From contig JBFWUF010000044.1 in assembly GCA_050247435.1 (NCBI GenBank), positions 321 through 64,320 of the forward strand: a stretch of 64,000 bases of DNA, in the 5' to 3' direction. The notes below the pieces were generated by a model, which saw only the letters and a program-made list of their open reading frames with translations, did no database searches and had not been told where the DNA came from. This document shows positions 12,375 through 58,894 of the stretch, one piece after another. Both the position numbers and the translations under genes were made by a program. Positions within the stretch are counted from its first letter, which is position 1; every line of letters begins with the position of its first letter. This DNA is from Blastocatellales bacterium (lineage in GTDB: Bacteria; Acidobacteriota; Blastocatellia; RBC074).

Positions 12375-12499
12375 CGCTTCATTTCCTTTCGATTCGCGAT
12401 TTGGTTCGGATGAAAAATGCCGTAATCGCTCACGCCGCCATCCGCTCATCTTTTTAATCCGGAGGTGTGATCTGGTGAGTTGCTCCTGGACTGAAGAGG

Positions 12500-12910
12500 T
12501 TATCGAGGTCGGGCGAGGATATTGGTGGGCAGGTAGAGCGCGGGATGATGAATGATCCGCTGGTTGGTCGAACCGCGCCATTCTCCGGCGTTCTCTGAAA
12601 GCTCTTTGACGAAGGGGCCATCAATCAGAATGTCCGAGAGTTCAAGAATCCGCCTGATTGTCCGATCATTGCGGTTTGCCAGGTCATCCAGCATATAGCC
12701 TGTGTAAAGTGTGATGTGCTGGCCGCGCTGTCTGAGTAATTGCATCAAGACCAACAACCCTTGCGGTTGCAGAAACGGCTCTCCGCCGAGGATGGTCACT
12801 CCGTCACGAGGCGCGCCTTGCGGATCGAGCAGGCGCTCGATGATTTCGCTGACTTTCATTTCGACGCCGCCGTTGATGTCGTGAGTTTCAGGAACGAAGC
12901 AAGAAGTTAT
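12500..12910 (-). pseudogene. 3' fragment of a radical-SAM NrdG/YjjW-like activase gene (C-terminal ~135 aa), displaced by the insertion to its right
   Basis: The frame is open from the stop at 12913 and reads ITSCFVPETHDINGGVEMKVSEII...ILGGEPFLQ.... This aligns with residues ~110-230 of the intact paralog at 13169..13861 and begins exactly after the expected third Cys of CxxxCxxC. Confidence 0.65.
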
Positions 12911-12920
12911 CTACAGTCTG
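12907..12920 (+). repeat. 14-bp terminal inverted repeat, left copy (TTATCTACAGTCTG)
   Basis: Exact reverse-complement match to 17150..17163. Both copies lie precisely at the break points of the split rSAM gene. Confidence 0.75.
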
Positions 12921-12979
12921 GGCGGGAATGATACGATTTGATCGATAAGTATGCTCTCTCTATTGGAGTTATTCTCCCA

Positions 12980-13050
12980 GCAGTCCATTGAGTGTTGCAA
13001 GCTTGAAGCGAGCGGAGCAAGCGTAAAGCTTGCAACACTCAATGGACTGC
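12980..13050. repeat. perfect palindrome: 25-bp arms (GCAGTCCATTGAGTGTTGCAAGCTT / AAGCTTGCAACACTCAATGGACTGC) with a 21-nt loop
   Basis: Read directly from the sequence. It lies inside the insertion, 60 bp from the left inverted repeat and downstream of the intact rSAM gene. No T-run follows, so it is not a canonical intrinsic terminator. Confidence 0.9.
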
Positions 13051-13168
13051 TCGCAGCCGCGCTGCTATGTTCACGGCGGATTTCCTCAATCCTTTCCGGG
13101 AGGCGTTGAAATCTCTGTCTACTCTTTTCGCTCAAGGCGAGGAGCAGTCTTATGGAGACGCAACATGT

Positions 13169-13861
13169 TCAGCATAGAACGATCTGACCTCTGCTGCGCG
13201 TCGCCGTGAGGTCGATCACCCGCTGGTTGCCGCTGCCAGTCCAGGCGCCAGCGCTGCCGGCCAGCGCCTCGATGTATGGGCCATCAATGAGAATGTCCAA
13301 CTCGTTGAGTGCATCGCTAATCGCAGGCTGCCGTTTGACTCGCTCTCGCAGGGCCTCGTAGGTGTATCCGCTGTAGCACAAGATGTGTGAACACCCGCGC
13401 GCACGCAGCTCACGCGCCAGCGCCAGCAATGCGTTAGGCTGTGCGAACGGCTCCCCGCCCAAAATGCTTATGCCGTCCCGATCGTAATTGGGGTCAAGCA
13501 AAGCTGCCGCTAAACAGTTCGCGGGAACCAGCACGCCGGCGCTCGAGTCGTGCAATTCAGGGACCCAGCATCCTTTGCACGCCAGGGGACACGATTGGAA
13601 CAACACGGAGCTGCGCCGTCCCGGCCCTTCCGTGAGCGAGTTATGGTAGTAGCCTGTGATGCGCACGCACTCGCTTGCCGCTCTCTCATCAGCCGTGGCG
13701 ACAGGCGGCGGCAGCACCTCGATTGGACGGGCGCAGCCGATCTCCCGCGCCGCGCCCGCAAGCTCTGTTAGATGGTTCAGCGTTTCCTCTGAAAGACGGT
13801 CGGGCCCCTCGATTAACATTGCGCCATTCAGTTCATCCACGATGATCGAAATCTCCGGCAT
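13169..13861 (-). CDS. radical-SAM organic-radical-activating enzyme family protein (NrdG/YjjW-like, COG0602), intact copy with a ~50-aa N-terminal extension
   Basis: YHNSLTEGPGRRSSVLFQSCPLACKGCW carries the CxxxCxxC motif and the GGEPF motif follows. The start overlaps the recombinase stop by 29 nt. Confidence 0.75.
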   Translation of the reverse strand: MPEISIIVDELNGAMLIEGPDRLSEETLNHLTELAGAAREIGCARPIEVLPPPVATADERAASECVRITGYYHNSLTEGPGRRSSVLFQSCPLACKGCWVPELHDSSAGVLVPANCLAAALLDPNYDRDGISILGGEPFAQPNALLALARELRARGCSHILCYSGYTYEALRERVKRQPAISDALNELDILIDGPYIEALAGSAGAWTGSGNQRVIDLTATRSRGQIVLC

Positions 13862-16093
13862 GCGATTCAGCCCCTTTCGTATTTGCGTTCGCCAATACGC
13901 CCTTTGCCGACCGCTCTTCTTCTTGTATCTGCAGTGGCGCGCCGCCGAGTGTTGTAATGCTGCGTTCGATCCCGTTGATTGCGCTGCTCATCTCGCGATC
14001 GAGTTCCTGTTTGCGAGCGCCGCCGATCATGCGGCTGCCGATCCCGCGCAGTTCAATGAGGTTTGCTCGTTGACGTTCGAGCAGCGGCAATCCCTCCTGA
14101 TCCGGGATGTAGTTTGGGCAGGAGTGACAAGCCAAACGCGTCTCACACGGGTGGTAGGCGGTTAACCCGCACCAGCCGATACCAAGATCCACAAACAGCG
14201 ATTCACGCCACTGAACCTGAGCTTCGACATGCGCTTCGGGCGAAAGCAAGACACGCACTTGCGCTGTCGCCCGATGCTCTTCATCAATGGCGGCGAAAGC
14301 GGTCTCGAACTCCTGCCGCAAGAGCGGCGGCATGACCGCCGCATAGCGCATCGTCATTCGCAGGCTTTTGTGACCAAGCATCCGGCTGATCGTCTCAATC
14401 CGCATACCACGCGCGCGCCATTGCACGGCCAGCGTGTGGCGAAACTGGTGGCTGGTGAAGGCTGATGAGGTTCCCGCGAGTGCGCAGAGTCGCTTGATAA
14501 AACAATTGAGTAGATGGGGACTAAGAGGGTGGCCCTTCCACGTGAAAAGCAAATCGCGCGTCTTATCTGTGCGCTGGTCGAGGGTCGCGGGCTGTCGTCC
14601 ACGCCTAGTCATCCACTCGTCCACTGCGGTGACTAGTTGCGGTCTGACGGGAATCATCCTGTCATTATGCAACTTGCCAATCGGAACTCGCAGCCAGTGT
14701 GTTTGCTCGCCAGTTTGTTGATCCTGTGTTGCCATCAGGCAGCCGGTATCAAGCCGACAGAGCTCGCCAGCTCGCAACCCGCACTCGAATAACACCGCGA
14801 AGATGGCGCGCAATCGCTCGAATGGCTGCGGCAGCTTGTATTCGGCGGCTAAGTCCAGTGTGAGGCGCTCAACTGTGTCGACCAGCAAGCGCCAATCAGC
14901 GTCAGGAATCGCTCGCGGCAGTTCTTCATCCAGCCGTGGCGTGTCGCCGCGCACCCATAGCTTGCGTCCAGGCCGCTCCGGATATTCCAAGGCGTCGATG
15001 TGCTCGCAAAGGACTCGCACACAGGAAAGCGCGCGCACTTGATGAGCGCGTGAAAGCGGTTCGCCAACATTGACCGTCCGGAATTCCTGCCCGACATTAG
15101 TGTAATCGCCGCATCGCATCTCCTTGACTGCGCGTTTGTATGCCTCGATGTGTGTGCGGCGTAACTCCGCGACCGACTGCAGTGAAGGGGCATACTCGCC
15201 GAGCCAGTCGCCAAAGCGCCGCAGGCTTACACGGTAACTATTGACGGTCCCCGGCGCCCGGATCGTTTTCATGTCATCGAGAAATCGCTCGAAGGTGGCC
15301 ACGATGCCAGGCGCAGTACGTCCCCACCCGAACTTGTCAGGCGGCGCGAATCCTGTCAGGCGCGGCGCCTCGCCACCAAGGTGTCCCATCGCGGCGAGCA
15401 CTTTTTGAATGCAAGTGACACTTCCGTATGCGACGCGCTTTGTGCGACGGGTGTGAGCTTGCCAGCCCTCGAGGTCGGCTTTAGTCAATTCTGCGACATC
15501 GATCTTACCGGAGAAAACGAGAACAGAGAGCAGCACGCCAACTACATGCTTGCGCAGCGAAGGCGTGTACCGATAGCCGATGCCTTCTGCCGCCTGTATG
15601 AAACGCTCGGCAATCCGGTCGGCCCGTTCTTTGCCGAGCCATCTGTCCGCCAGGTGACGATGGTAGGTCTGGTAGATCTCTTCGCTGTAAGGCAGCACGC
15701 CGAGAAAGAAGAGCGTTGAAGTTAATCGCGCCCAATTGGTGGCCAGCGCTTGCCGCCAGATTTTCGGTCGCTGCGCTTCCCGTTCCAGCAGCGCTTGCTT
15801 CCAGGCCAGCAGCTTCTCCCAGTTGAAATCCCAGTAAGTGCAGTTCAGTTCCAGCATGATCTGCGCGCATAAGTGAATAGCGTGGCTGAGATAGCATTGA
15901 TGCAGATGTGGCGGTGCGTCGCGGATGGTGAATTCATAATAGGCTCGTTTGAACTGCGCGAACAAATCTTCAAGCGCCGCCATTTCAACCTTCGAGTATC
16001 TGCTTTTGGCAAGGGCCTCACGTTCGTGGTCACGAAGCTTCAGAGGTCTTGCTATAAGGATGGCATCATTCACATTTGCCGTCTGGTTCATCA
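13833..16093 (-). CDS. large tyrosine recombinase/integrase (Tn554 TnpB-like), ~753 aa
   Basis: C-terminal catalytic region HQFRHTLAVQWRARGMRIETISRMLGHKSLRMTMRYAAV (R..H-x-x-R...Y). The start is placed at MMNQTANV (AAGGAG RBS), 28 nt inside the upstream gene's end. The long N-terminal region is unassigned. Confidence 0.8.
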
Positions 16094-27868: not shown

Positions 27869-28281
27869 CGCCGTTCCTCCTTGAGGTCACGGCTGCGCTG
27901 CCCACTCTCATTTATGTTTAATCCAGGTTTAGTTGCTCTTGGTTGGCGTATGTGCGAACGCTTCCAGGCACCTTCTGCAAAGGCAGTTTTTGTATCGCTC
28001 GCGTAAGTGACGTCGGACCTCTGCGCTGAGTTTAATGTTTAGGCGCCAGCAATCGGTGAGCGACGCGCCACAGACAAACGACTCTCAGCAAGCCTCACAG
28101 GCCTGTGGCAGTCGGCGTAAAGGCAAAACCAAGTTGGTCAGATCGCGAAATTTCATGGCAGATAATCATATTACGCGCTATTCTTTCTGCCACACGGGGA
28201 TGTTGGCGACAAAGATCGAAACAGCCCCATAATCAATGAACAGCACAAAGACCTCTGTCAGATTGAGGAGGATTCCGGAAC

Positions 28282-48943: not shown

Positions 48944-50134
48944 CTATTGGTCCGCTCCGCTATGAAACAAGACAGGCTGTGAAGTCACTTCTTTCGTCAT
49001 CCCTTTGCTCTCCTGATTCCAAACCAGGCTCTTATACTGCACCAGCAGGTAATTTGAGAGTAGTTGTATATCCTTAGATGTATTTTGAATCTCGTTCCAC
49101 TTGCGCTGACAGCCAGGGCCGAAATCCCAATATCCATCAGTCCACCTGCAGACTTCTCGTATCGGCTCGAGGTCGGCGGCGAACTGATTTTCAGTCGGAA
49201 TGGTCATTCGGCGATGACGCTCCGCGATGGCATCCATCAGAAACCCTAAGCTGATGATTCCTGCTCCATGTACCAGCCGAGAACGGCGTGGTGGCAAATC
49301 CCACGCCTGATCGAAGACCTTCCTGACTGCCCCCCAATAATTCCGCAGTACATTCATGATACTGTCTACGTCACCAGGGCCGTCTGGCGTGTAACGAAAG
49401 CGATAAAGAACCCCGTCGCTCAGACTGTTCTCCAACATCTTGAGAATGGAATTATCCTTGATATTCCCTAGTGGAGTGGTTGGAGTTTGGATACGTCCTT
49501 TGAGTGGAGAGTCTTCTTCGTGATTGAGTAGATCAAGCAGGTAGGCGGGAAAACGTCGGCGTTGTAGCAAGTTTGGCAACGCAGCTTCCGTGTTCGGGAG
49601 CAGTTCGTAAATCAATCCCTTCGGCAAGGGCTTAGTGGAATTGACCAAAATGAATTGCTCAGTTTGTTCGTGAACTTCGCTTGTAATAAACGCAGTGACG
49701 CAGATCGGGAACGATTCAATATCAGCGTCACGAATCGCGGCCAGACGTTGTTGGCCATCTACGATGAAGCCCGGTTTGTCTTCAGACGCGAGGTTAGTAT
49801 CAATCGGAATGATTAGCGTCCCGATTCTGGTGTATGCAATTGTAGACATTGATTCGCTAGATGTTTCAAAGCGGATGCGGGTATCGAAAGCAATTACAAC
49901 GGCATTGGGTACCATTGGAGATTCGCTTTCAAGGTAGTTCCTGATCTCCGCTATGTGTGAAAGCACTTCTGGGCGTTGATACCCACTCAGGCTGTTTCCC
50001 TCCTCGCGGCGGATGCGGGAAACAGTAGCAAAATTTGAAATCAGTTTGCCATCAATGGCGAAACTGTACAGCAAGCGATCCGCCCCTTGTCGCACTTCAA
50101 TGGCCGGAACTCGTAGTTCAGTTAGACCAGACAT
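48944..50134 (-). CDS. dpdB: DGQHR-domain protein (DndB/DpdB-like), paralog 1
   Basis: GFIVDGQQRLAAI (DGQHR signature, here DGQQR) and GYQRPEV motif. Directly downstream of and coupled to dpdA. Confidence 0.7.
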   Translation of the reverse strand: MSGLTELRVPAIEVRQGADRLLYSFAIDGKLISNFATVSRIRREEGNSLSGYQRPEVLSHIAEIRNYLESESPMVPNAVVIAFDTRIRFETSSESMSTIAYTRIGTLIIPIDTNLASEDKPGFIVDGQQRLAAIRDADIESFPICVTAFITSEVHEQTEQFILVNSTKPLPKGLIYELLPNTEAALPNLLQRRRFPAYLLDLLNHEEDSPLKGRIQTPTTPLGNIKDNSILKMLENSLSDGVLYRFRYTPDGPGDVDSIMNVLRNYWGAVRKVFDQAWDLPPRRSRLVHGAGIISLGFLMDAIAERHRRMTIPTENQFAADLEPIREVCRWTDGYWDFGPGCQRKWNEIQNTSKDIQLLSNYLLVQYKSLVWNQESKGMTKEVTSQPVLFHSGADQ

Positions 50135-51430
50135 TCAAATTATCTCCTGTTTGTTGGGTGATTCGATCCAGGCTGTGACGCCACTGCATTCTGAGATCTT
50201 TTCGGTGAGGATTCCCAGTTCACGCTGTAACCTGCGATAAAAAACCCAGACATTGTGCAGGCCGCGTCGCCGATTGCGCTCAGCGCCTCGGAACAAGATG
50301 ACGTGATAGCCGATGCGCTGGCAAACATCACAGGGGCAGTGCAACCAGGGGCGATTCGTCAATACTTCCCTGTAAGTTTCCTGCATATCACGCCCCGGTT
50401 CGCAAAAATGATCGTAAGCAATAATTGCCTCAAGCGTTTGGTCAAGAGTGTATTCACCTATATCAAACTTTTTCAGTGCAGTTAGACAAGCCTTTTCAAG
50501 CTTACGAGCGTGATCTTGCGAAACCTGCCCCGATTTGATCCGCTTTTGTAATTGCGGATTACCTTCCACTTGTGGAACCCTAATGGCACTGTAAGTTCGA
50601 TCCATCGTATAAAAATTATCTTTCTCATCCTTAAATGCCTGTCGCAATGGTGAGGTGCTGTCGAAACTCGAGACGCCATAACCTATGAACGTTGGCAAAT
50701 GATCCGTGCGCGTTACACCGAGTAAATGCAGTTTTGTTTTTGGCTCTCTCACGTCAGCAATGGCAGCTAAGCAAGAAACGATCTCTTTCGTTTTCAGCGG
50801 TACCATGCCGCCGAGGGCAATGTATGTATAACCAATTCGCTGAAGCGATTGGACTGCACGTGCATAAGATAAAGGGCTCCATCCTTGGGCAACGCCAACT
50901 GGCTCAAAATCGAGTCTTAATGCGCGATGCCTAGCCAAAAACTCTGAAGCCAGTTGCAACGTGATTTCCTGGCGGCGAACAAATTCTGCCGGGACGGCAT
51001 CAGTTGCATTATCAAGATTCGCTTGATACGCAAGAATCACATGATCAACGGAGATTCCGTAATTGAACTCGCATTCGACATAAAACCGTATCACCTCATC
51101 AACTGTATAAGGAGGAACCTCCTCGCGCACGTAGGTGAAAGCTCCGCAGTCTCCCATAATCGGAAGATTGCGGGAACCTGTTCTGAAGAACTCAGGCGCG
51201 CCGACTCTCAGAAGTCTGTGCCGCTGGGCCATTGTGTAACGGCTGCCGTTGTTGCCGTAACCATCAACAATCCCTTTGGAAACGAGTAGTCCATCATAAG
51301 CCGCAGACGAAAACACTTCGTGAGCGTACATATCATCCCGATGACGCACGCGATCAGGAGAGCGATTCTCCTTCTCGAAGTCGAAACTAGGATCAACAAA
51401 GTCTTGACTATCCGGGAAAAAGAACTTCAT
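50135..51430 (-). CDS. dpdA: tRNA-guanine-transglycosylase-family DNA-guanine transglycosylase DpdA
   Basis: TGT hallmarks: LHLLGVTRTDHLP, FDSTSP, the zinc site CPCDVC...H, and YIALGGMVP. Encoded beside preQ0 synthesis genes and DGQHR proteins. Confidence 0.75.
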   Translation of the reverse strand: MKFFFPDSQDFVDPSFDFEKENRSPDRVRHRDDMYAHEVFSSAAYDGLLVSKGIVDGYGNNGSRYTMAQRHRLLRVGAPEFFRTGSRNLPIMGDCGAFTYVREEVPPYTVDEVIRFYVECEFNYGISVDHVILAYQANLDNATDAVPAEFVRRQEITLQLASEFLARHRALRLDFEPVGVAQGWSPLSYARAVQSLQRIGYTYIALGGMVPLKTKEIVSCLAAIADVREPKTKLHLLGVTRTDHLPTFIGYGVSSFDSTSPLRQAFKDEKDNFYTMDRTYSAIRVPQVEGNPQLQKRIKSGQVSQDHARKLEKACLTALKKFDIGEYTLDQTLEAIIAYDHFCEPGRDMQETYREVLTNRPWLHCPCDVCQRIGYHVILFRGAERNRRRGLHNVWVFYRRLQRELGILTEKISECSGVTAWIESPNKQEII

Positions 51431-52581
51431 TAACTAACCTTTCGTTTGTTGAGATATGCGCGAATCAGAAAATTGGACAACATGCGATGGTGAGTGGGCA
51501 AATTCTGAATTTCATTCCAGCGCAGACCGCCTAATCCCTCCCACACACCTCCAGTCCAGCGGCAGAAAGGTTGGATGCGTCCGAGTTCACGCTTGACCAT
51601 GGCCTGTGCTCTAGGGGCCTCCAGTTCGATCATCGGCATCACTCTGTCCATTAGTCGCCCCATCGCGCGAATCCCAACTCCATGCATCAAGCGACTCTTT
51701 TCCGGTCTTAACCCCCATGCCTCAGGGAAGGTGTCTCTGACAGCACTCCAATAGATGGTGAGTAAAGAGCGGACGCTGCTGAAATCAGTCACCCCAGTTG
51801 CCACATTGCGGAAGGGGAAGAGCACACCAGATGGCGAACTGAAGCTCTCCTGGAGCATTTTGATGATAACGGTATCTGTTACTACCGCCGTTTCTAGTTT
51901 CGCTTCGCTGGAAGAGGCTCTTCTGATCAATCCACAAAAAGGAGATTCGGGGTCCTGGTTGAGCAGTTCGCAAAGTGCTGACGGAACTTTTCGTGCCGCG
52001 AGATTAGCCGGTAAGGTGGTTGAAACTTCTGGCAGTAGTTCATCAATGAGTCCGCGTGGCAAAGGCCTTGTCGTGTTTACTCTCAGGAACTGGTCCCGCT
52101 GAAGATCCAAGTTGTCTGCAACGAAAGCATTGATAGGGACTGGAAATCCACTCCTCTTCTCTTTGCTTTGGGTGAGGGCCAGCGTGCGCTGTTGCCCGTC
52201 TACTATCCAAGCCGGTTTTGTCTCGCCAGGCTGTGGCAAAGGAATTTCAAGAGTCCCTGTCACCGCGCCACCTTTATCAACTTTAGGCCCCCTGCTCTCT
52301 CTAAACACTACATCAGACGAAAGTGCCAAAATAACAGAGTTGGGAAAGATCACCGTTCCACTGTCCAGATAGTCAACAATGTTCTGAATATGACGCTTAA
52401 CTTCGGGGCGTTGGTAACCAATCAGTTTCCCCTTTTCATCGCGCGAGACGCGGGAGATATCAGCGATTTGAAGTATCTCGTCTCCACTGAGTGAGAACAG
52501 ATAGAGTGGGTGTGCAGGGTCTTGATCAATACGCAACGCGCGTCGGCGGAGCATGGCAGGGCGTTTAATTTTCATCATCAA
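51430..52581 (-). CDS. dpdB: DGQHR-domain protein (DndB/DpdB-like), paralog 2
   Basis: AWIVDGQQRTLAL and GYQRPEV. Homologous over its full length to paralog 1 (shared motifs VN.T.PLP.GLI.ELLP, SRL.HG.GI, CRWT.G.W, W.EIQN). Immediately upstream of dpdA. Confidence 0.7.
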   Translation of the reverse strand: MMMKIKRPAMLRRRALRIDQDPAHPLYLFSLSGDEILQIADISRVSRDEKGKLIGYQRPEVKRHIQNIVDYLDSGTVIFPNSVILALSSDVVFRESRGPKVDKGGAVTGTLEIPLPQPGETKPAWIVDGQQRTLALTQSKEKRSGFPVPINAFVADNLDLQRDQFLRVNTTRPLPRGLIDELLPEVSTTLPANLAARKVPSALCELLNQDPESPFCGLIRRASSSEAKLETAVVTDTVIIKMLQESFSSPSGVLFPFRNVATGVTDFSSVRSLLTIYWSAVRDTFPEAWGLRPEKSRLMHGVGIRAMGRLMDRVMPMIELEAPRAQAMVKRELGRIQPFCRWTGGVWEGLGGLRWNEIQNLPTHHRMLSNFLIRAYLNKRKVS

Positions 52582-53537
52582 TCTCCTCTGACTTCCCAGT
52601 AAAGTTCCTTAAACCTGCTTTGTTCACAGGCAAAACCGCTGTCCCTCAGCCTTCTTAGAAGCATACTGCAACTTAACTGTGGAGTGGATTTCAGATTGAC
52701 CTTCACGAATTGTCGTACTTGGCGGTCTGTAATTTGCTGACGTTGAAAATTTTCTCTCTGCGGAGATTTCGCGATCAACGCCTCAATTCGTTTTCCGACA
52801 GTTTTGGCGTCAAAGCCCCAGGAATTTACTTTCTTCAGGATCAGGGACGCGACCCGTGCATGCAGCGAAACGCAACTGCCACCAAGGCGGGACTGTAACC
52901 GAGCACTTGAGCAAACAGAATGATGGCGTAATAACCCATTAGTGAGTTTAGAGGGTGAGGTCACAATCATCAATCTTTCTGGCGATGCGAGCGCCAACAG
53001 TGCAGACTGTAAATCCTTCTCAACTGCTGATAGGTAGTATGGAGACGCCACCAGTAGGAAATATGACCTCCTGGAGTTCATAAGAAGATCCGTCAATGAA
53101 TGCGGTTCGTCTTTACCACCGCCAGCGAATTGACACAAACTCCCCCACCAAGTCTGAAGCATGGGATCACGTGGTTGCTCTGGTATCGCGGTAGCGGTGA
53201 CAGAATCCAATTCATCGCTTGCGAAAGTGGCGGAGTATGGATGAATACAGGCGCTGGCCGGAACCAGACCATACCCAGCAGACATTATCCAGAGACTTGG
53301 CTTAAACCCAACTTCCTGTGCTAGAGTCGGCAACTCTTTAGTGACTACCCAGTGTTCACCGGCGTACAACCGCTCTGCTGCTGTCGTCGTCCCCCGATGA
53401 TCTGCCAGCCGACGGCACCACTCATGTACTCTGCTTTCTATATCATCGGTAGTAACGGTCCGAAGTTGCAGATCATTCGACACCGGCGCGGTTTTCCGGT
53501 TGGAGCAACTTACAATGATTTGCAGCGAAGGCTTCAT
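52578..53537 (-). CDS. hypothetical protein, first gene of the minus-strand dpd operon (possible DpdC-like)
   Basis: Overlaps the next gene's start (ATGA). No motif recognised. The AT-rich 450-bp region upstream is a likely promoter. Confidence 0.4.
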   Translation of the reverse strand: MKPSLQIIVSCSNRKTAPVSNDLQLRTVTTDDIESRVHEWCRRLADHRGTTTAAERLYAGEHWVVTKELPTLAQEVGFKPSLWIMSAGYGLVPASACIHPYSATFASDELDSVTATAIPEQPRDPMLQTWWGSLCQFAGGGKDEPHSLTDLLMNSRRSYFLLVASPYYLSAVEKDLQSALLALASPERLMIVTSPSKLTNGLLRHHSVCSSARLQSRLGGSCVSLHARVASLILKKVNSWGFDAKTVGKRIEALIAKSPQRENFQRQQITDRQVRQFVKVNLKSTPQLSCSMLLRRLRDSGFACEQSRFKELYWEVRGD

Positions 53538-53994
53538 TTCTCAGCAGGGTCACAGTTTTTCACATCTTGCAGAAGTGAAAATTTACATCAAAAAATATCA
53601 TAAGGCTAGCGTAGTTATGTCATGTTGATAAGATTAAGTAATTACACAAATCCCAACGCTCCCCTTTGACCCGTGCGAATGCATTGTGGTTGTGTATTCT
53701 TTATTGATTCAAGGCGCGAACCCTGAATTATTGAATACAATCATCAACCTGTGGCTCGATGAAGCTTTCGCGAGAATCGCCGTCTTTGACGGCCTTTTCA
53801 GTATTTCAGGTTTAAGCCGGAGGAGTGCTGGTCGCAAGCGATGCGCCGCAGATAAACGCTTCTCCACAAGCTTCACAGATTTGTGGCGCGCGCCGTTGAG
53901 GCAGAATTAAGTTAGTCAATTCTCGCAGCTTCATTGCGCGCAATCATATGACGCGGCGTCGCTTCTCACCATATCCGCAACACACGGCTCATCA

Positions 53995-56319
53995 TCATTT
54001 TTCTCGCTGTGAGCGATCCGGGTTCGGATTCATCAATCGCAGCAGAAGTGGTAATTCATCATCGGCCTCTTCGACAGAATCCTCATTGCGGACAACGCCG
54101 ATTTCTCTGGCGGCGATTGTGAGCCGGTTGATGTATTCTTGCCGGTCGTAGTTGATCGTCGCGTTTCGGTTAGTGGTTGCGACCCTCTCAGCTTTCTTTT
54201 TCGCCTTTGAATTCGTGATGACGTAACCGATCTTCTCGCCGGGACGCACATTCACGCCATCGGCGATCAATTCGCGCGCGGCTAATGACGCGCGCGTTTC
54301 GACTGAATAGTCTTCAATCTCGCGGCTCACTACTTGTTCGATGATCAGAAGCCTGGGATCAACCTTTCCGCTTTTGAGCTTGGCAAGACAGTCATCGTAG
54401 AGTCGTTTCGCTTCCTGTCGTTTCTGTTGCAATTCTTCAACGCTGTGGGCCTTTGCTAAGACAGCGAGCATCTGCTCCTGAGCCTGTTTGATAAATTCCG
54501 GCGTGTCGTGTCGCCGGCAGGCCAGGCCGCGAATCTTCATCTGTCCGTCGGTGAACACGCCGTAAAATCTCGCCGCGACCGGGCGTGAGGATTTGATCTT
54601 CGACGGCGTGAATACTAGCCAGCGGTAAACTCCTTCCAGGCTCATCTCGATTCCGGTTTCGCGCGTGATCATTTCGCAGAGTTCGAGCAGCCTTTCTTCA
54701 CTCGCGCCGGCTTTCCTGATCCACAAACTGTCAGTCAGCGCGTGAAGCATTTCGTAGCCTGCGCCTTCGGCAATCTCTTTCGCTCGTAGCAGCGTTTCTC
54801 GCCCCCAAGCGGTCACCCCTTCGTGCGCTTCAATGCGGCCGAAGCGGGCGCCCTTATACCCCATGTACCCGAAAGCCGTCACCAGCATCCATTTGATTGC
54901 GCCGCGCCGCGCGTCGTAAATCGCCCGCGTCCGCTCATCGGCGCTTTTCATCAGTTGTTTGAGCCGGTTTCGCCGCTCGATCAGCGGTTCGAGCGTGAGC
55001 GGGATCAAGCCGCGCCGTTTCTCGCAGATGTTGTATCCGGCTTCGGGCACGGCGATGTTTTCACAGCAAGAGCACAGCACGGTTTCAGGCGAGATGTTGC
55101 GCGTGACCATTAAAGAAGGATACATCGAGACGAAGTCTATCTCGATAACATCTTCGTGCTCGCCAACTGGCGGCTGGTAGGTCAATCCGCCCTTATCCAC
55201 GGTCAATAGCTGCAACGCGGTCTTGGGCTTTTCCGGCTCGCTCTTGCGCCAGGGGATCAGAATGCCGCCGGTGATCGCGCGGTACATCTGCATCGAGGTC
55301 ATCGCGGCTCCGGGGCTAACGCGACTCATTTTTTGCAAAGGCACCCGACTGAGCCGCGCCAGTTCCAGCAATCCTTCCATTCCGGTTTCGTGATGCGCGA
55401 ATGAATTCTCGCGGTCAATGTGCCAGCGTCCGAAGAGCGGGTAACTCGGCGGCTTGTAAACGATATTGCCGTAGCTGAAGTATGTGCGGCCCTCAGTCCC
55501 AATCTTGCGCTCGGTGAGCACCCGGTCACGATCGAGCCGCAGTTGCAGCTTCTCGCGTCCGGCAACATTCAGCAGCGCAGGAAACAGGGTCGAATCGCCG
55601 CGCTCGCTCAGGATCAGATCGGGATCGTATCGTTCGATGATTTCGTTGAAGGCGTTGATCGCCTTCGCGCCCGCGCTGGGGCGGAGGACGAATTCATCGG
55701 CTCCCACCGCAATGACGATTCTGCTGTCGCCGGTCAAGGGGCGCATCCGTTCACCACGCATCCGCAATATGCTGAGCGGCAACGGGGCGTGGTCAATATC
55801 CCACGGCGAGTTGGTCGCTGCGACTTCAATCAAGTTACCGTGCCGATCAAGCTCTGCGACCAGTCGGCACAGTGGAAAAAGGTGTTTGAGGTAGAGGTAG
55901 TGTTGCGCCGCCGCAATATCGAGGTTGTAAAACGTGACCTCGCGGTCGAGTTTTGCGGCGACTTCGCGTAGCTTCAGCAGGTTCGAGGAATCAGCTATGT
56001 CGAGTTGCATCACCTCAATTTCTTTGCCGCTCCAGAATTCAACCTTCTCGGCCCATCGCACGCCAGCGATCAGATCGCGCCGGCGCAGATCGGTTGCGAG
56101 TTGTTTGAGTTTTGTCCTGTCGCCGGAGGCGTAGACCGGTTGGCGCCACTCATCGGTCACGCGATGCAATCGCCCGTCGCCGTCGTAGACCCAGAGGGTA
56201 ACCGCCGAGCCAAGCTCGTCAACGTCGAACAGCCAGCCCTCCAGACGCTTGCGGATCGCGGGTTGAGGCTCGCGGTTTGAAGGCAGGTTACTTCTTTGCA
56301 TCGCGCAGTTCTTTTTCAA
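53995..56319 (-). CDS. family-B DNA polymerase (Pol II-like size, ~770 aa)
   Basis: Motif A IDFVSMYPSLM (DxxSLYPS) and exo-I-like FDVDE. By eye, motif B (KWMLVTAFGYMGY) and motif C (HALTDS versus YGDTDS) look divergent. Confidence 0.7.
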   Translation of the reverse strand: MKKNCAMQRSNLPSNREPQPAIRKRLEGWLFDVDELGSAVTLWVYDGDGRLHRVTDEWRQPVYASGDRTKLKQLATDLRRRDLIAGVRWAEKVEFWSGKEIEVMQLDIADSSNLLKLREVAAKLDREVTFYNLDIAAAQHYLYLKHLFPLCRLVAELDRHGNLIEVAATNSPWDIDHAPLPLSILRMRGERMRPLTGDSRIVIAVGADEFVLRPSAGAKAINAFNEIIERYDPDLILSERGDSTLFPALLNVAGREKLQLRLDRDRVLTERKIGTEGRTYFSYGNIVYKPPSYPLFGRWHIDRENSFAHHETGMEGLLELARLSRVPLQKMSRVSPGAAMTSMQMYRAITGGILIPWRKSEPEKPKTALQLLTVDKGGLTYQPPVGEHEDVIEIDFVSMYPSLMVTRNISPETVLCSCCENIAVPEAGYNICEKRRGLIPLTLEPLIERRNRLKQLMKSADERTRAIYDARRGAIKWMLVTAFGYMGYKGARFGRIEAHEGVTAWGRETLLRAKEIAEGAGYEMLHALTDSLWIRKAGASEERLLELCEMITRETGIEMSLEGVYRWLVFTPSKIKSSRPVAARFYGVFTDGQMKIRGLACRRHDTPEFIKQAQEQMLAVLAKAHSVEELQQKRQEAKRLYDDCLAKLKSGKVDPRLLIIEQVVSREIEDYSVETRASLAARELIADGVNVRPGEKIGYVITNSKAKKKAERVATTNRNATINYDRQEYINRLTIAAREIGVVRNEDSVEEADDELPLLLRLMNPNPDRSQREK

Positions 56320-56563
56320 GCTCGTCCACTCGGGCTTTTAGATGCCGAGCGTCTTTGAGCATCTCTATCAATACGGAGATGAAGATTGACTCCATCGGAT
56401 CGGGGTTGGAGGACTGCACCCCGGCCTGCACGTGCAGACGCGCGCGCTCGAAGATGTCGTCGAAGAGTTCCTGGTCCTGTTTGCGCAGCGTGCGGCGAAA
56501 CTTACTCAGCCGCTTCTGCTGGTCGGCTAGAACTATGCTGTATGGAGAGACAGTCCGCCCCAT
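56288..56563 (-). CDS. small helical hypothetical protein (91 aa) between the RecA-like gene and polB
   Basis: Strong RBS GGAGGTGGA. Its 3' end overlaps the polB start region. Confidence 0.55.
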   Translation of the reverse strand: MGRTVSPYSIVLADQQKRLSKFRRTLRKQDQELFDDIFERARLHVQAGVQSSNPDPMESIFISVLIEMLKDARHLKARVDELEKELRDAKK

Positions 56564-56653
56564 TCCACCTCCAATCGAGATGCAAAGAAGTTCACGGGGG
56601 TCGGGGCACAGAGCTTAAAGAGTCTTTGTCGAGAGTTTGACGATAACGCCCAA

Positions 56654-57244
56654 TCACTTCGCCAGCTTCAATTGATCGCGGCGGCGTTCGAGCGTGAAGG
56701 AATGCTCGTCTTCCAGCCGCATCACCACGTTCGAGGCGCGGCAGAGGTCGGTCAGGAAGTAAGCGCGTTTGGCGCCTTTCGGCGTTTCGCTCTGCGTGAA
56801 TAGCAAAGCCAAGCCCTCTCCCGACAGAGCGACGAGCCGCCGCAGCGAGCGATAAAACAACCGCGCCGCGTCGCTGTGCGTAATATCCTCGTCGTAGAAG
56901 GCCGTGCAGACGCCGGAGACAATGACTACCCCGAAAGCTTCTTCAGGGTTCAGGCGATGAATCAGTTCATCGAGTTGGTAGGCCGTAAAGGCTCGGGCAA
57001 CGAGTATACGGCTTAAAGCCTCTTCCTGGCTCTCGTCCAGCGACCTGACCAGTCTTGCAACCAGGTAAGGGTCGAAGCGGTTGTCGCCGGAAAGGAATAG
57101 AACCTTTTTGTATTCGCATGCCACCTGAGCGGCCAGATGTACGCCCAGTGTCCACGCGTGATCGCCGCAGACAACGACCATTCGCGCCGGGGACAAAGAG
57201 GCGCGCGCCACGAGCGGCGCGGAGCTTGTCGGCAGAGTTCGCAT
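56654..57244 (-). CDS. RecA-fold protein with a degenerate P-loop (ImuA/SulA-like), ~196 aa
   Basis: RecA-like order of elements: VVVCGDHAWTLGVHLAAQ (degenerate Walker A), VLFLSGDNRFDPYLVARL, GVVIVSGVCTAFYDED (Walker-B-like). The start is placed at ATG 57244 with a GGGAGG RBS 7 nt upstream. Confidence 0.45.
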   Translation of the reverse strand: MRTLPTSSAPLVARASLSPARMVVVCGDHAWTLGVHLAAQVACEYKKVLFLSGDNRFDPYLVARLVRSLDESQEEALSRILVARAFTAYQLDELIHRLNPEEAFGVVIVSGVCTAFYDEDITHSDAARLFYRSLRRLVALSGEGLALLFTQSETPKGAKRAYFLTDLCRASNVVMRLEDEHSFTLERRRDQLKLAK

Positions 57245-57412
57245 AACAATACCTCCCACGATATCGAACTTCTCGCGCCCGCGAACCCACTTGAACCGTA
57301 TACCCGAAATTTTGACGCGTGTTGGAGCGCCAATGACAACTGATGTGAATCTCGATTGATGGCTAAAAACGAAAGAGTGATGAGAAATTAGCGAAACATA
57401 GCTGAAATTGCA

Positions 57413-57464
57413 AATGATCCGGCGCGCTCACCGATTTTGGTTGGCGTCGTCATCCGGAAACAAC
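57413..57464. repeat. 52-bp direct repeat, copy A (50/52 identical to 63645..63696)
   Basis: AATGATCCGGCGCGCT[C/T]ACCGATTTTGGTTGGCGTCGT[C/A]ATCCGGAAACAAC. On the minus strand it encodes the last 11 codons (LFPD.DANQNR*) plus 20 nt of 3' flank of the HTH gene at 63660..63890. Confidence 0.85.
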
Positions 57465-57649
57465 TGCGCGCTGGCGGCGGGCGAGGACTTCGCGCGCGGC
57501 GTGCTGGGCGAACTGGAACTGCGCGCGGAGATCGAAGCGATGGCCAACGATCTGTACAAGCAGTTCGAGGATACGGACGCCTGGCGCCAACGCTATCCCG
57601 GATGGTAAGTTAAGCCGATTCGTTAGCCCACAAATGAGGGTTATGCGCA

Positions 57650-58894
57650 ATGGCAAATCGTGATTACGACGTTGTGCTTTACGGCGCCAGCGGCTTCACC
57701 GGCAAACAAACTGTCCGGTATTTCGCCGAGAAGGCGCCTCCGGGCGATTTGCGTTGGGCCATCGCCGGACGTAACCGAGAGAAGCTTGAGGCTGTGAAGA
57801 TGCAGGTCGGCGGCGCAGCCAAAGACGTGGACGTGTTGGTGGCTGACAGTCGTGATCAGACGGCAGTGGACGCCATCGTTTCACGGACGCGCGTGATGCT
57901 GACGACTGCGGGGCCTTTTGCGCTATATGGGGGCGCAATCGTCGATGCCTGCGTGCGGTTCAAGACACACTATGTCGACATTACGGGCGAGACGACCTGG
58001 GTCAAAGGTCTCATTGATCGTTATCACAACCAAGCGGCTGCTGACGGGACACGGATCATTCCGTGCTGTGGATTCGATTCGGCGCCATCGGATCTGGGCG
58101 CCTACCTTGTCGTCCGGCACATGCAGCGAGAGATCGGTGTGTCGTGCAAAGAAGTGAAGGCCTATTTTCAGGTTTCCGGCGGGGTCAATGGCGGCACTCT
58201 GGCCACCGTATTCAATCTCTATGATTCGGGCCAGGCGGATCGAGCGCGCGATCCTTTTCTCTTGAACCCGCCTGGAGAGCGTTCCAACACGGAGATCGAA
58301 CGAAACCAGGACCCAACGCTGCCTCGGTACGATAAAGACATTGACGCGTGGGTCGGGCCTTTTTTCATGGGACCGATCAATACGCGAGTCGTGCGGCGCA
58401 GTAGCGCTTTATATGAACAGTGGCAAGATCCTTACGGACCGGACTTCAGCTATCAGGAATACATGAAGTTCGAGGGGCTATTCGGCCATTTAGACCATTT
58501 AGGGTGGCTGCAGGCCGCTGGTTTGACGGCGGGAGCGGCGCTTTTTGAGATCGCGCTGCGATCCCCGGTCCGCCACCTGATGAAATCTATCCTGCCGCAA
58601 CCGGGCGACGGGCCTTCAGAGAAAACCATGAATGAAGGATGGTTCCGCTGTGAGTTGTTGGGCCTGACCAGCGACGGACGAAAAACCCATGGCCTGATTC
58701 GCGACCAGGGAGACCCAGGGAATCGCGCCACCGTCAAATTTCTATGCGAGTCGGCTCTGGGCCTGGCAGTGAACACTGACGAGTTGCCCGGCGGCGCGCA
58801 GCGCGGCGGCATACTGACCCCGGCCACGGGCCTTGGAGATGTCCTCGCGAATAGGCTTCGCAATGCAGGAATGACAATTGAGGTCGAGAGATGA
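57650..58894 (+). CDS. saccharopine-dehydrogenase-like NAD(P)-binding protein
   Basis: VVLYGASGFTGKQ Rossmann motif and Sacchrp_dh-like layout. 414 aa. Confidence 0.7.
   Translation: MANRDYDVVLYGASGFTGKQTVRYFAEKAPPGDLRWAIAGRNREKLEAVKMQVGGAAKDVDVLVADSRDQTAVDAIVSRTRVMLTTAGPFALYGGAIVDACVRFKTHYVDITGETTWVKGLIDRYHNQAAADGTRIIPCCGFDSAPSDLGAYLVVRHMQREIGVSCKEVKAYFQVSGGVNGGTLATVFNLYDSGQADRARDPFLLNPPGERSNTEIERNQDPTLPRYDKDIDAWVGPFFMGPINTRVVRRSSALYEQWQDPYGPDFSYQEYMKFEGLFGHLDHLGWLQAAGLTAGAALFEIALRSPVRHLMKSILPQPGDGPSEKTMNEGWFRCELLGLTSDGRKTHGLIRDQGDPGNRATVKFLCESALGLAVNTDELPGGAQRGGILTPATGLGDVLANRLRNAGMTIEVER

Follow-up and report, generated by a model that had tools for sequence, protein, structure and literature searches.

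A probable group 1a PolB2 mutasome operon with an apparent lexA relic in a Blastocatellales bacterium

PolB2 operons are found in archaea and bacteria and encode the DNA polymerase PolB2 together with the proteins PPB2 and iRadA (Timinskas, Timinskas and Venclovas, 2025, PMC11791011). The present analysis concerns a 64,000-nucleotide (nt) stretch of DNA from a Blastocatellales bacterium (assembly GCA_050247435.1, contig JBFWUF010000044.1, positions 321-64,320, forward strand), here called the window, in which the genes at 53995-57244 are taken, with a probability of roughly 0.9, to form a bacterial PolB2 mutasome of the published group 1a (iRadA-PPB2-PolB2), i.e., an archaeal-derived module for translesion DNA synthesis. 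In the published family the first aspartate of the PolB2 DxD motif is replaced, the exonuclease site is lost and a D(K/R) loop is conserved; PPB2 (formerly arCOG07300) is small, consists of three helices and carries a conserved 'MGRT' arm at its N-terminus, and iRadA consists of a Rad51/RadA core devoid of the N-terminal domain and of the ATPase residues. The sole gene order in bacteria is iRadA-PPB2-PolB2, the bacterial operon was derived from archaea by a single transfer, and lexA is enriched beside it. AlphaFold models predict a PolB2:iRadA:PPB2 complex of 1:1:3 stoichiometry, the published set including a Blastocatellia trio with a ranking score of 0.86, and in a fraction of the members one of the two proteins iRadA and PolB2 has a C-terminal beta-clamp motif. 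The supplement of that study lists Acidobacteriota PolB2 with the motif 'HALTDSLWI / LTD' in the context LexA-iRadA-PPB2-PolB2 (PMC11791011). Earlier accounts (Rogozin, 2008; Makarova, 2014, PMC4104785; Kazlauskas, 2020, PMC7544198) had already described the family, the last of them with a bacterial PolB2 group, and a 2026 survey names the group G2/PolB2.

A homologous trio is found in Sulfolobus islandicus, where it comprises Dpo2, arCOG07300 (PPB2) and a RadA paralogue (PMC4104785; Feng, 2020, PMC7390963; Feng, 2022, PMC8764526). Archaeal PolB2 resembles the polymerase of the window in being exonuclease-minus, in the absence of the first aspartate of motif C and in its DNA-damage context. 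Unlike the bacterial operons, the archaeal ones exhibit several gene orders, PCNA motifs and a link to Orc1/Cdc6-type regulation, and experiments have been reported for the archaeal enzyme only. Sulfolobus Dpo2, whose DxD motif reads IID, is active as a polymerase, has no exonuclease and can extend mismatched termini as well as termini opposite lesions (PMC8764526), and it is required for damage-induced mutagenesis according to work cited in PMC11791011. Expression inducible by DNA damage and a part in targeted mutagenesis have been shown for Sulfolobus only. The Escherichia coli Pol V mutasome (UmuD'2C-RecA) and the ImuA-ImuB-DnaE2 system share with the PolB2 operon the logic of a damage-inducible, LexA-linked, multi-subunit error-prone polymerase with a RecA-superfamily partner and a small subunit bearing an N-terminal arm; however, their polymerases belong to the Y and C families, whereas that of the window belongs to family B and has a partner of the Rad51/RadA type; the likeness is one of analogy and not of homology. 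E. coli Pol II (PolB) is likewise a family-B polymerase, SOS-linked and with an extender-type translesion role, but it consists of one subunit, whose DEDDy exonuclease is active, whereas the window PolB2 appears to have lost the corresponding carboxylates and is scored far lower by Pol II models than by archaeal-type ones.

The window proteins were compared by blastp with the supplementary sequences of PMC11791011, the PolB2 comparison covering the first ~400 residues. Identities to a Chloracidobacterium trio of group 1a (MBO0859576-78) were 62% for PolB2, 57% for PPB2 and 54% for iRadA, and those to archaeal Methanomethylicia proteins were 33% (E 8e-54), 35% (E 3e-14) and 33% (E 7e-22), respectively. 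The Chloracidobacterium operon agrees with that of the window in its three proteins, in their order and in their common strand, and the features by which the family is defined are present in both: the gene order, motif C in its LTD form, a dead exonuclease, an LDRDR loop, the MGRT arm and a Rad51 core devoid of ATPase motifs. The HALTDSLWI motif of the window PolB2 is identical in published Acidobacteriota members (PMC11791011). The window differs from group 1a by an extra C-terminal tail of ~35 residues on PolB2, common only to its closest relatives, and by the state of lexA, which heads most bacterial operons of this kind and is represented here by what seems to be a relic of ~125 nt instead.

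The three genes are intact and lie on the minus strand (Table 1). The original prediction, made from the letters alone, of an operon for a RecA-superfamily protein, a small helical protein and a divergent family-B polymerase is borne out in this respect; the strings it quoted (VVVCGDHAWTLG, DFVSMYPS, KWMLVTAFGY, HALTDS and a GTTC-rich string at 57265-57297) are all found in the sequence, and the anatomy of the operon proved recoverable by an eye-only reading. A described cassette of this kind, of which it knew none, does exist: the trio is treated in detail in PMC11791011. Publications already cover the cassette together with its proteins, motifs and lexA link, and Acidobacteriota members belong to the published data set; nothing is added to the catalogue of systems and the claim of novelty fails. 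As for the gene calls, the mechanically called open reading frames (ORFs) begin at a GTG for iRadA, giving 201 amino acids (aa), and at a TTG for PolB (53995..56319, minus strand), giving 774 aa. The ATG at 56301 is more likely to be the PolB2 start than the TTG, since the same start is used in an NCBI protein from a Blastocatellales metagenome-assembled genome (MAG) (P0001, 768 aa, 100% identical). The PPB2 stop and this start overlap by 14 nt, which suggests translational coupling of PPB2 and PolB2. In comparisons with the two nearest orthologous loci, which are 91% and 83% identical at the nucleotide level, the ratio of nonsynonymous to synonymous substitution rates (dN/dS) was 0.03-0.24 for all three genes and 0.15-0.19 for PolB2; all three are under purifying selection and thousands of homologues exist, i.e., they are real genes and not chance ORFs. 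A Rfam scan of 53400-57800 returned just two sub-threshold snoRNA matches, attributable to chance.

PolB2 matches the Pfam family DNA_pol_B (2.4e-33) and, far more strongly, the archaeal-type NCBIfam model NF004416 ("type B DNA-directed DNA polymerase", 4.6e-122), whereas Pol II models reach 5e-17 or worse; its best solved relatives are the PolB enzymes of Pyrococcus and Thermococcus (Pfu/KOD; phmmer, 7e-50). Alignment to these structures shows that motif A (DFVSMYPS against DFRALYPS) keeps its aspartate, that motif B (KWMLVTAFGY against KLLANSFYGY) keeps the lysine and glycine with replacement of Asn by Val and of Tyr by Phe, and that in motif C (HALTDS against YIDTDG) the first aspartate is replaced by leucine and the second is kept. 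The registration made by eye was therefore correct, and motifs B and C are truly non-canonical. In the exonuclease domain, the positions of Pfu D141, D215 and D315 are occupied by L, L and N, and only the residue at E143 is kept; the 3'-5' exonuclease active site has probably been lost, the residue-level assignment being less certain given the weak domain alignment (E 0.01). The LDRDR loop, with D257, R258 and D259 invariant, corresponds to the D(K/R) motif that follows the exonuclease-like region. This loop and the residue states given above for motifs A to C and for the exonuclease positions, among them the motif A aspartate, the motif B lysine and the LTD of motif C, are invariant across 18 homologues, down to 56% identity. 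In the C-terminal tail a candidate beta-clamp-binding motif can be recognised, and the C-terminus of iRadA (DQLKLAK) is a weaker candidate of the same kind.

Some PolB2 of the Blastocatellia type (P0109, P0113 and P0120; 876-888 aa) end in a TIR domain (TIR_2 at residues 744-838 of P0120), and the TIR-fused genes, located at 348-2978 in locus L004 and at 322-2952 in L005, match the PADLOC models for the ThsB, RT-TIR and PDC-S66 TIR proteins. A whole-word search for 'TIR' in the text of the PolB2 mutasome paper (PMC11791011) gave no mention of the fusion; its presence in the wider family hints at functions other than translesion synthesis alone. Another homologue (P0097) carries an intein with a LAGLIDADG domain, and many polB2 genes of Desulfobaccales and other 'delta' lineages (L049, L054-L065) are broken up into 2-5 separate tblastn matches, so that this gene seems often to contain insertions or inteins.

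iRadA gave weak sequence matches to Pfam Rad51 (4e-4) and to NCBIfam Dmc1/RadA. In alignments to RadA (5jed) and of 34 sequences, the P-loop position reads GDHAWTLG and the Walker B position reads VSG, with Asp replaced by Ser; the protein (196 aa) thus comprises the RadA/Rad51 core only, without the N-terminal domain and without Walker A or B residues. An AlphaFold2 model built with 34 homologues (predicted local distance difference test score, pLDDT, 89.6; predicted TM-score, pTM, 0.87) was compared with the PDB by Foldseek, and the top 50 structures were all DMC1, RAD51, RAD51-paralogue or RadA cores (E ~1e-10, TM-score 0.6-0.75). Neither the Pfam and NCBIfam matches at E<=0.01 nor these best 50 structural matches included an ImuA, RecA or SulA family. 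From its sequence and its modelled fold, the protein is placed in the Rad51/RadA branch as the 'iRadA' of the literature. The original comparison with ImuA was apt as regards the dead P-loop; descent from ImuA is not upheld by the Rad51/Dmc1/RadA matches, and ImuA-ImuB-DnaE2 offers a functional analogy only. PPB2 begins with MGRTVSPYS, M1, G2, R3 and T4 being invariant in homologues and the MGRT start being present in 50 of 52 PPB2 homologues of related loci. Its AlphaFold2 model has helices at 7-25, 28-51 and 57-90 and a free N-terminal arm. PPB2 homologues are annotated with PF26485 (DUF8156); the window protein itself had no match in the Pfam scan, probably owing to a difference in library version.

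A scan of one genome per species yielded 63 related loci, distributed over Acidobacteriota (mostly Blastocatellia), Desulfobaccales and other 'delta' lineages, Nitrospirota, Elusimicrobia, WOR-3, Chloroflexi, SAR324 and Nitrospinota. Arrangements were counted by tblastn in the 48 loci that include the N-terminus of the polymerase and have 1.5 kb or more of upstream sequence: lexA-iRadA-PPB2-PolB2 was found in 28, lexA-(gap)-PPB2-PolB2, with an iRadA too divergent to detect, in 6, iRadA-PPB2-PolB2 in 13 and PPB2-PolB2 in 1. Gene order is thus kept in 47/48 loci with all genes on one strand, lexA stands directly upstream in 34/48, and the co-occurrence of the RecA-like gene with PolB in other genomes, proposed at the outset as a check, was found in conserved order. 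Some genomes hold two or three full copies of the operon: in CAZTUB01, a MAG with L014, L015 and L050, a separate lexA accompanies every copy and the promoter repeats are near-identical, and in the MAG JAJVHZ01 (L011 and L021) both copies are devoid of lexA.

The upstream region was compared with that of L009 (72% PolB2 identity), the closest relative that still possesses lexA. The last ~125 nt before the iRadA start of the window align at the nucleotide level with the 3' end of the L009 lexA and, in the LexA frame, read RFTSVVIGAPTRVKISGIRFKWVR against RYKPIIIADASRVKIQGIVVGLVR, which corresponds to LexA residues 176-199 of 202 with 42% identity (blastx, E 0.017, small database). This segment occupies exactly the position of lexA in the 34 other loci and appears to be the decayed 3' end of a deleted lexA, now serving as leader. 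In the other lexA-less sub-clades (L011, L013, L017 and L021), blastx revealed no convincing lexA relic. Farther upstream, TTGCAA-TTTCAGCTATGTTTCGCTAATTTC at 57384-57413 aligns with the lexA promoters of nine related operons (form TTGACAATTTTCGATTATTTTCGATCATG), whose consensus is TTGACA-ATTTTCGATTATTTTCGATCATG with direct TTTTCG repeats between and after the promoter hexamers; by this alignment it would be the promoter of the ancestral lexA, together with the operator through which that gene presumably regulated itself. New about the locus are only the relic and the retained promoter. GTTC-N7-GTTC is the LexA box of Alphaproteobacteria, the LexA motif of Acidobacterium capsulatum is reportedly of the same type, and a direct-repeat operator would fit the LexA of the latter species. 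A loose resemblance to such boxes had been seen in the GTTC repeats downstream of the promoter, together with a misfit in their spacing. The repeats and the misfit are confirmed, but the resemblance to a LexA box is discarded because the spacings are N6 and N13 instead of N7, the repeats are not conserved in orthologues (in L006, the closest orthologue, GCGC stands in place of the middle one, and L008 has a spacing of N5) and they are located within the lexA coding relic.

Table 1. Features of the PolB2 locus and its borders in the window (positions of the 64,000-nt stretch)
Feature	Position	Strand	Description or evidence
iRadA	56654..57244	-	196 aa from ATG, GGGAGGT 7 nt upstream; Rad51/RadA core, predicted to be catalytically inactive
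PPB2 (Pfam DUF8156)	56288..56563	-	91 aa, GGAGGT 5 nt before ATG; three helices and MGRT arm
PolB2	53995..56301	-	768 aa from ATG; family-B polymerase, exonuclease domain apparently inactivated, motif C LTD
PolB2 C-terminal tail (DDELPLLLRLM), candidate beta-clamp-binding motif	54036..54071 (approximate)	-	RLPLF or SDLLF at this place in relatives
Apparent relic of lexA 3' end, now operon 5' leader	57245..57371	-	Alignment to L009 lexA, blastx, lexA position in 34 related loci
Candidate promoter (-35 TTGCAA) and overlapping TTTC(G) direct repeats	57384..57413	-	Homology to lexA promoters of related operons
Truncated 40-aa Cys-rich CWC-type ORF downstream of polB2, outside the operon	53812..53934	-	Edge of the block common with L001

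According to the mechanism proposed here, PolB2, which would be devoid of proofreading, most likely extends primer ends that are mismatched or distorted by lesions, in a predicted 1:1:3 complex with iRadA and PPB2. In this complex iRadA, as an ATPase-dead Rad51-like core, would be bound by way of a PolB2 loop, a mimic of the oligomerisation motif of Rad51, and the PPB2 trimer would insert an MGRT arm beside the active site and the DNA. A damage-tolerance polymerase complex is the best reading of the locus, the translesion or extender activity being taken only from genetic and biochemical work on Sulfolobus, and involvement in damage-induced mutagenesis is likewise the best interpretation. Most bacterial relatives have a lexA of their own as the first gene of the operon, which is presumably under SOS control. 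In the clade of the window most of lexA would have been deleted, with the lexA-type promoter and the relic leader remaining, and we infer that the operon is transcribed from this promoter through the leader and is either controlled in trans or derepressed. It is a tentative and rather doubtful scenario that the lineage lost its cassette-linked lexA by internal deletion and kept a lexA-type promoter with operator-like repeats, leaving a polymerase that is either expressed constitutively, as a mutasome derepressed by nature, or controlled by a LexA from another place in the genome. A lineage with a deleted operon lexA and a recognisable relic and promoter would offer a natural experiment on the control of a mutagenic polymerase, and a cultivable member of the Blastocatellia with the operon would be a useful model for bacterial PolB2 complexes.

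Several points weigh against this interpretation. The heteropentamer is predicted from AlphaFold models only, and no experimental study of a bacterial PolB2 complex was found in the literature searched. No lexA was detected in the 64-kb window by tblastn with E. coli LexA, and SOS control is unproven here. A position weight matrix derived from six distinct lexA-promoter operators ranks the candidate operator only 9th in 64 kb (2.3 bits), a low rank that reflects a 1-nt shift between the repeats; since no independent motif score supports the operator, the claim is founded on promoter homology, and the evidence that LexA binds there today is weak. The triple-TTTC pattern occurs once in 64 kb against 0.31 expected, the pattern having been chosen post hoc, and a strict sigma-70 promoter scan of 53800-57700 gave no match. 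In addition, the weak alignment of the PolB2 exonuclease domain to solved structures makes the residue calls less certain, and the clamp-binding motif is a loose match, the tail reading DELPLLL where relatives have RLPLF or SDLLF.

The replacement of the first motif C aspartate by leucine, that of the motif B Asn and Tyr and the loss of the exonuclease site could be taken to mean that PolB2 is a catalytically dead scaffold and that the operon has a non-polymerase role, as had been raised at the outset. This is improbable, because the metal-ligand aspartates (motif A and the second of motif C) and the motif B lysine are invariant in the 18 homologues, the dN/dS of PolB2 is low, and Sulfolobus Dpo2, also without the first aspartate, is a robust polymerase (PMC8764526). 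An undescribed mutasome, in which an ImuA homologue and a family-B polymerase would form a new analogue of imuA-imuB-dnaE2, can hardly be entertained: a degenerate P-loop in a RecA-superfamily fold does resemble ImuA in outline, and the operon of relatives is linked to lexA as imuA cassettes are, but the cassette is already in the literature (PMC11791011), its RecA-fold protein matches Rad51/Dmc1/RadA models and structures with no ImuA, RecA or SulA family among the matches, the same protein shares a third of its residues with archaeal iRadA, and there is no ImuB or DnaE2 partner.

A further alternative, that the cassette belongs to or cooperates with anti-phage defence or a mobile element, arises from its surroundings. 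It adjoins a Dpd island (48944-53537) encoding DpdC, DpdB, DpdA and a second DpdB (PADLOC, E 1e-82 to 1e-179), some PolB2 homologues bear the C-terminal TIR domain mentioned above, neighbourhoods differ between genomes that are only 9% diverged, and some MAGs hold two or three copies of the cassette. The adjacency that the original prediction had pointed out is therefore real, but no functional meaning can be attached to it, since it is absent at the related loci with gene lists (L001/L002, L003 and L004/L005). Homology with L001, the closest orthologous locus, is restricted to 53837-53972 and 53987-57419, and its left edge falls inside a CWC-type ORF that is intact in L001 (75 aa, 14884-15110) and truncated in the window. 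The island stretch (48944-53837) has a GC content of 0.49 against ~0.57 elsewhere, and its right edge at ~53837 cuts this ORF, which indicates a recent insertion; because the ORF truncated by the island edge is conserved in L001, the Dpd adjacency is regarded as a later event without functional link to the operon. Moreover, the window DNA outside the cassette block has no match in eight close relatives, no PADLOC family was assigned to iRadA or PPB2, the sole PADLOC match of PolB2 is a homing-endonuclease model that evidently embeds a PolB, and the consistent partner of the cassette is lexA, an SOS marker. A defence or mobile-element affiliation is thus very improbable, and the PolB2 mutasome of group 1a is retained as the identity of the locus. 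In L001, an IS21-family element (Mu-transposase C-terminal domain and IstB, 12437-14766) is located directly after polB2, and the window harbors a second copy of the CWC-type sequence at 27962-28177 on the minus strand, with an in-frame stop.

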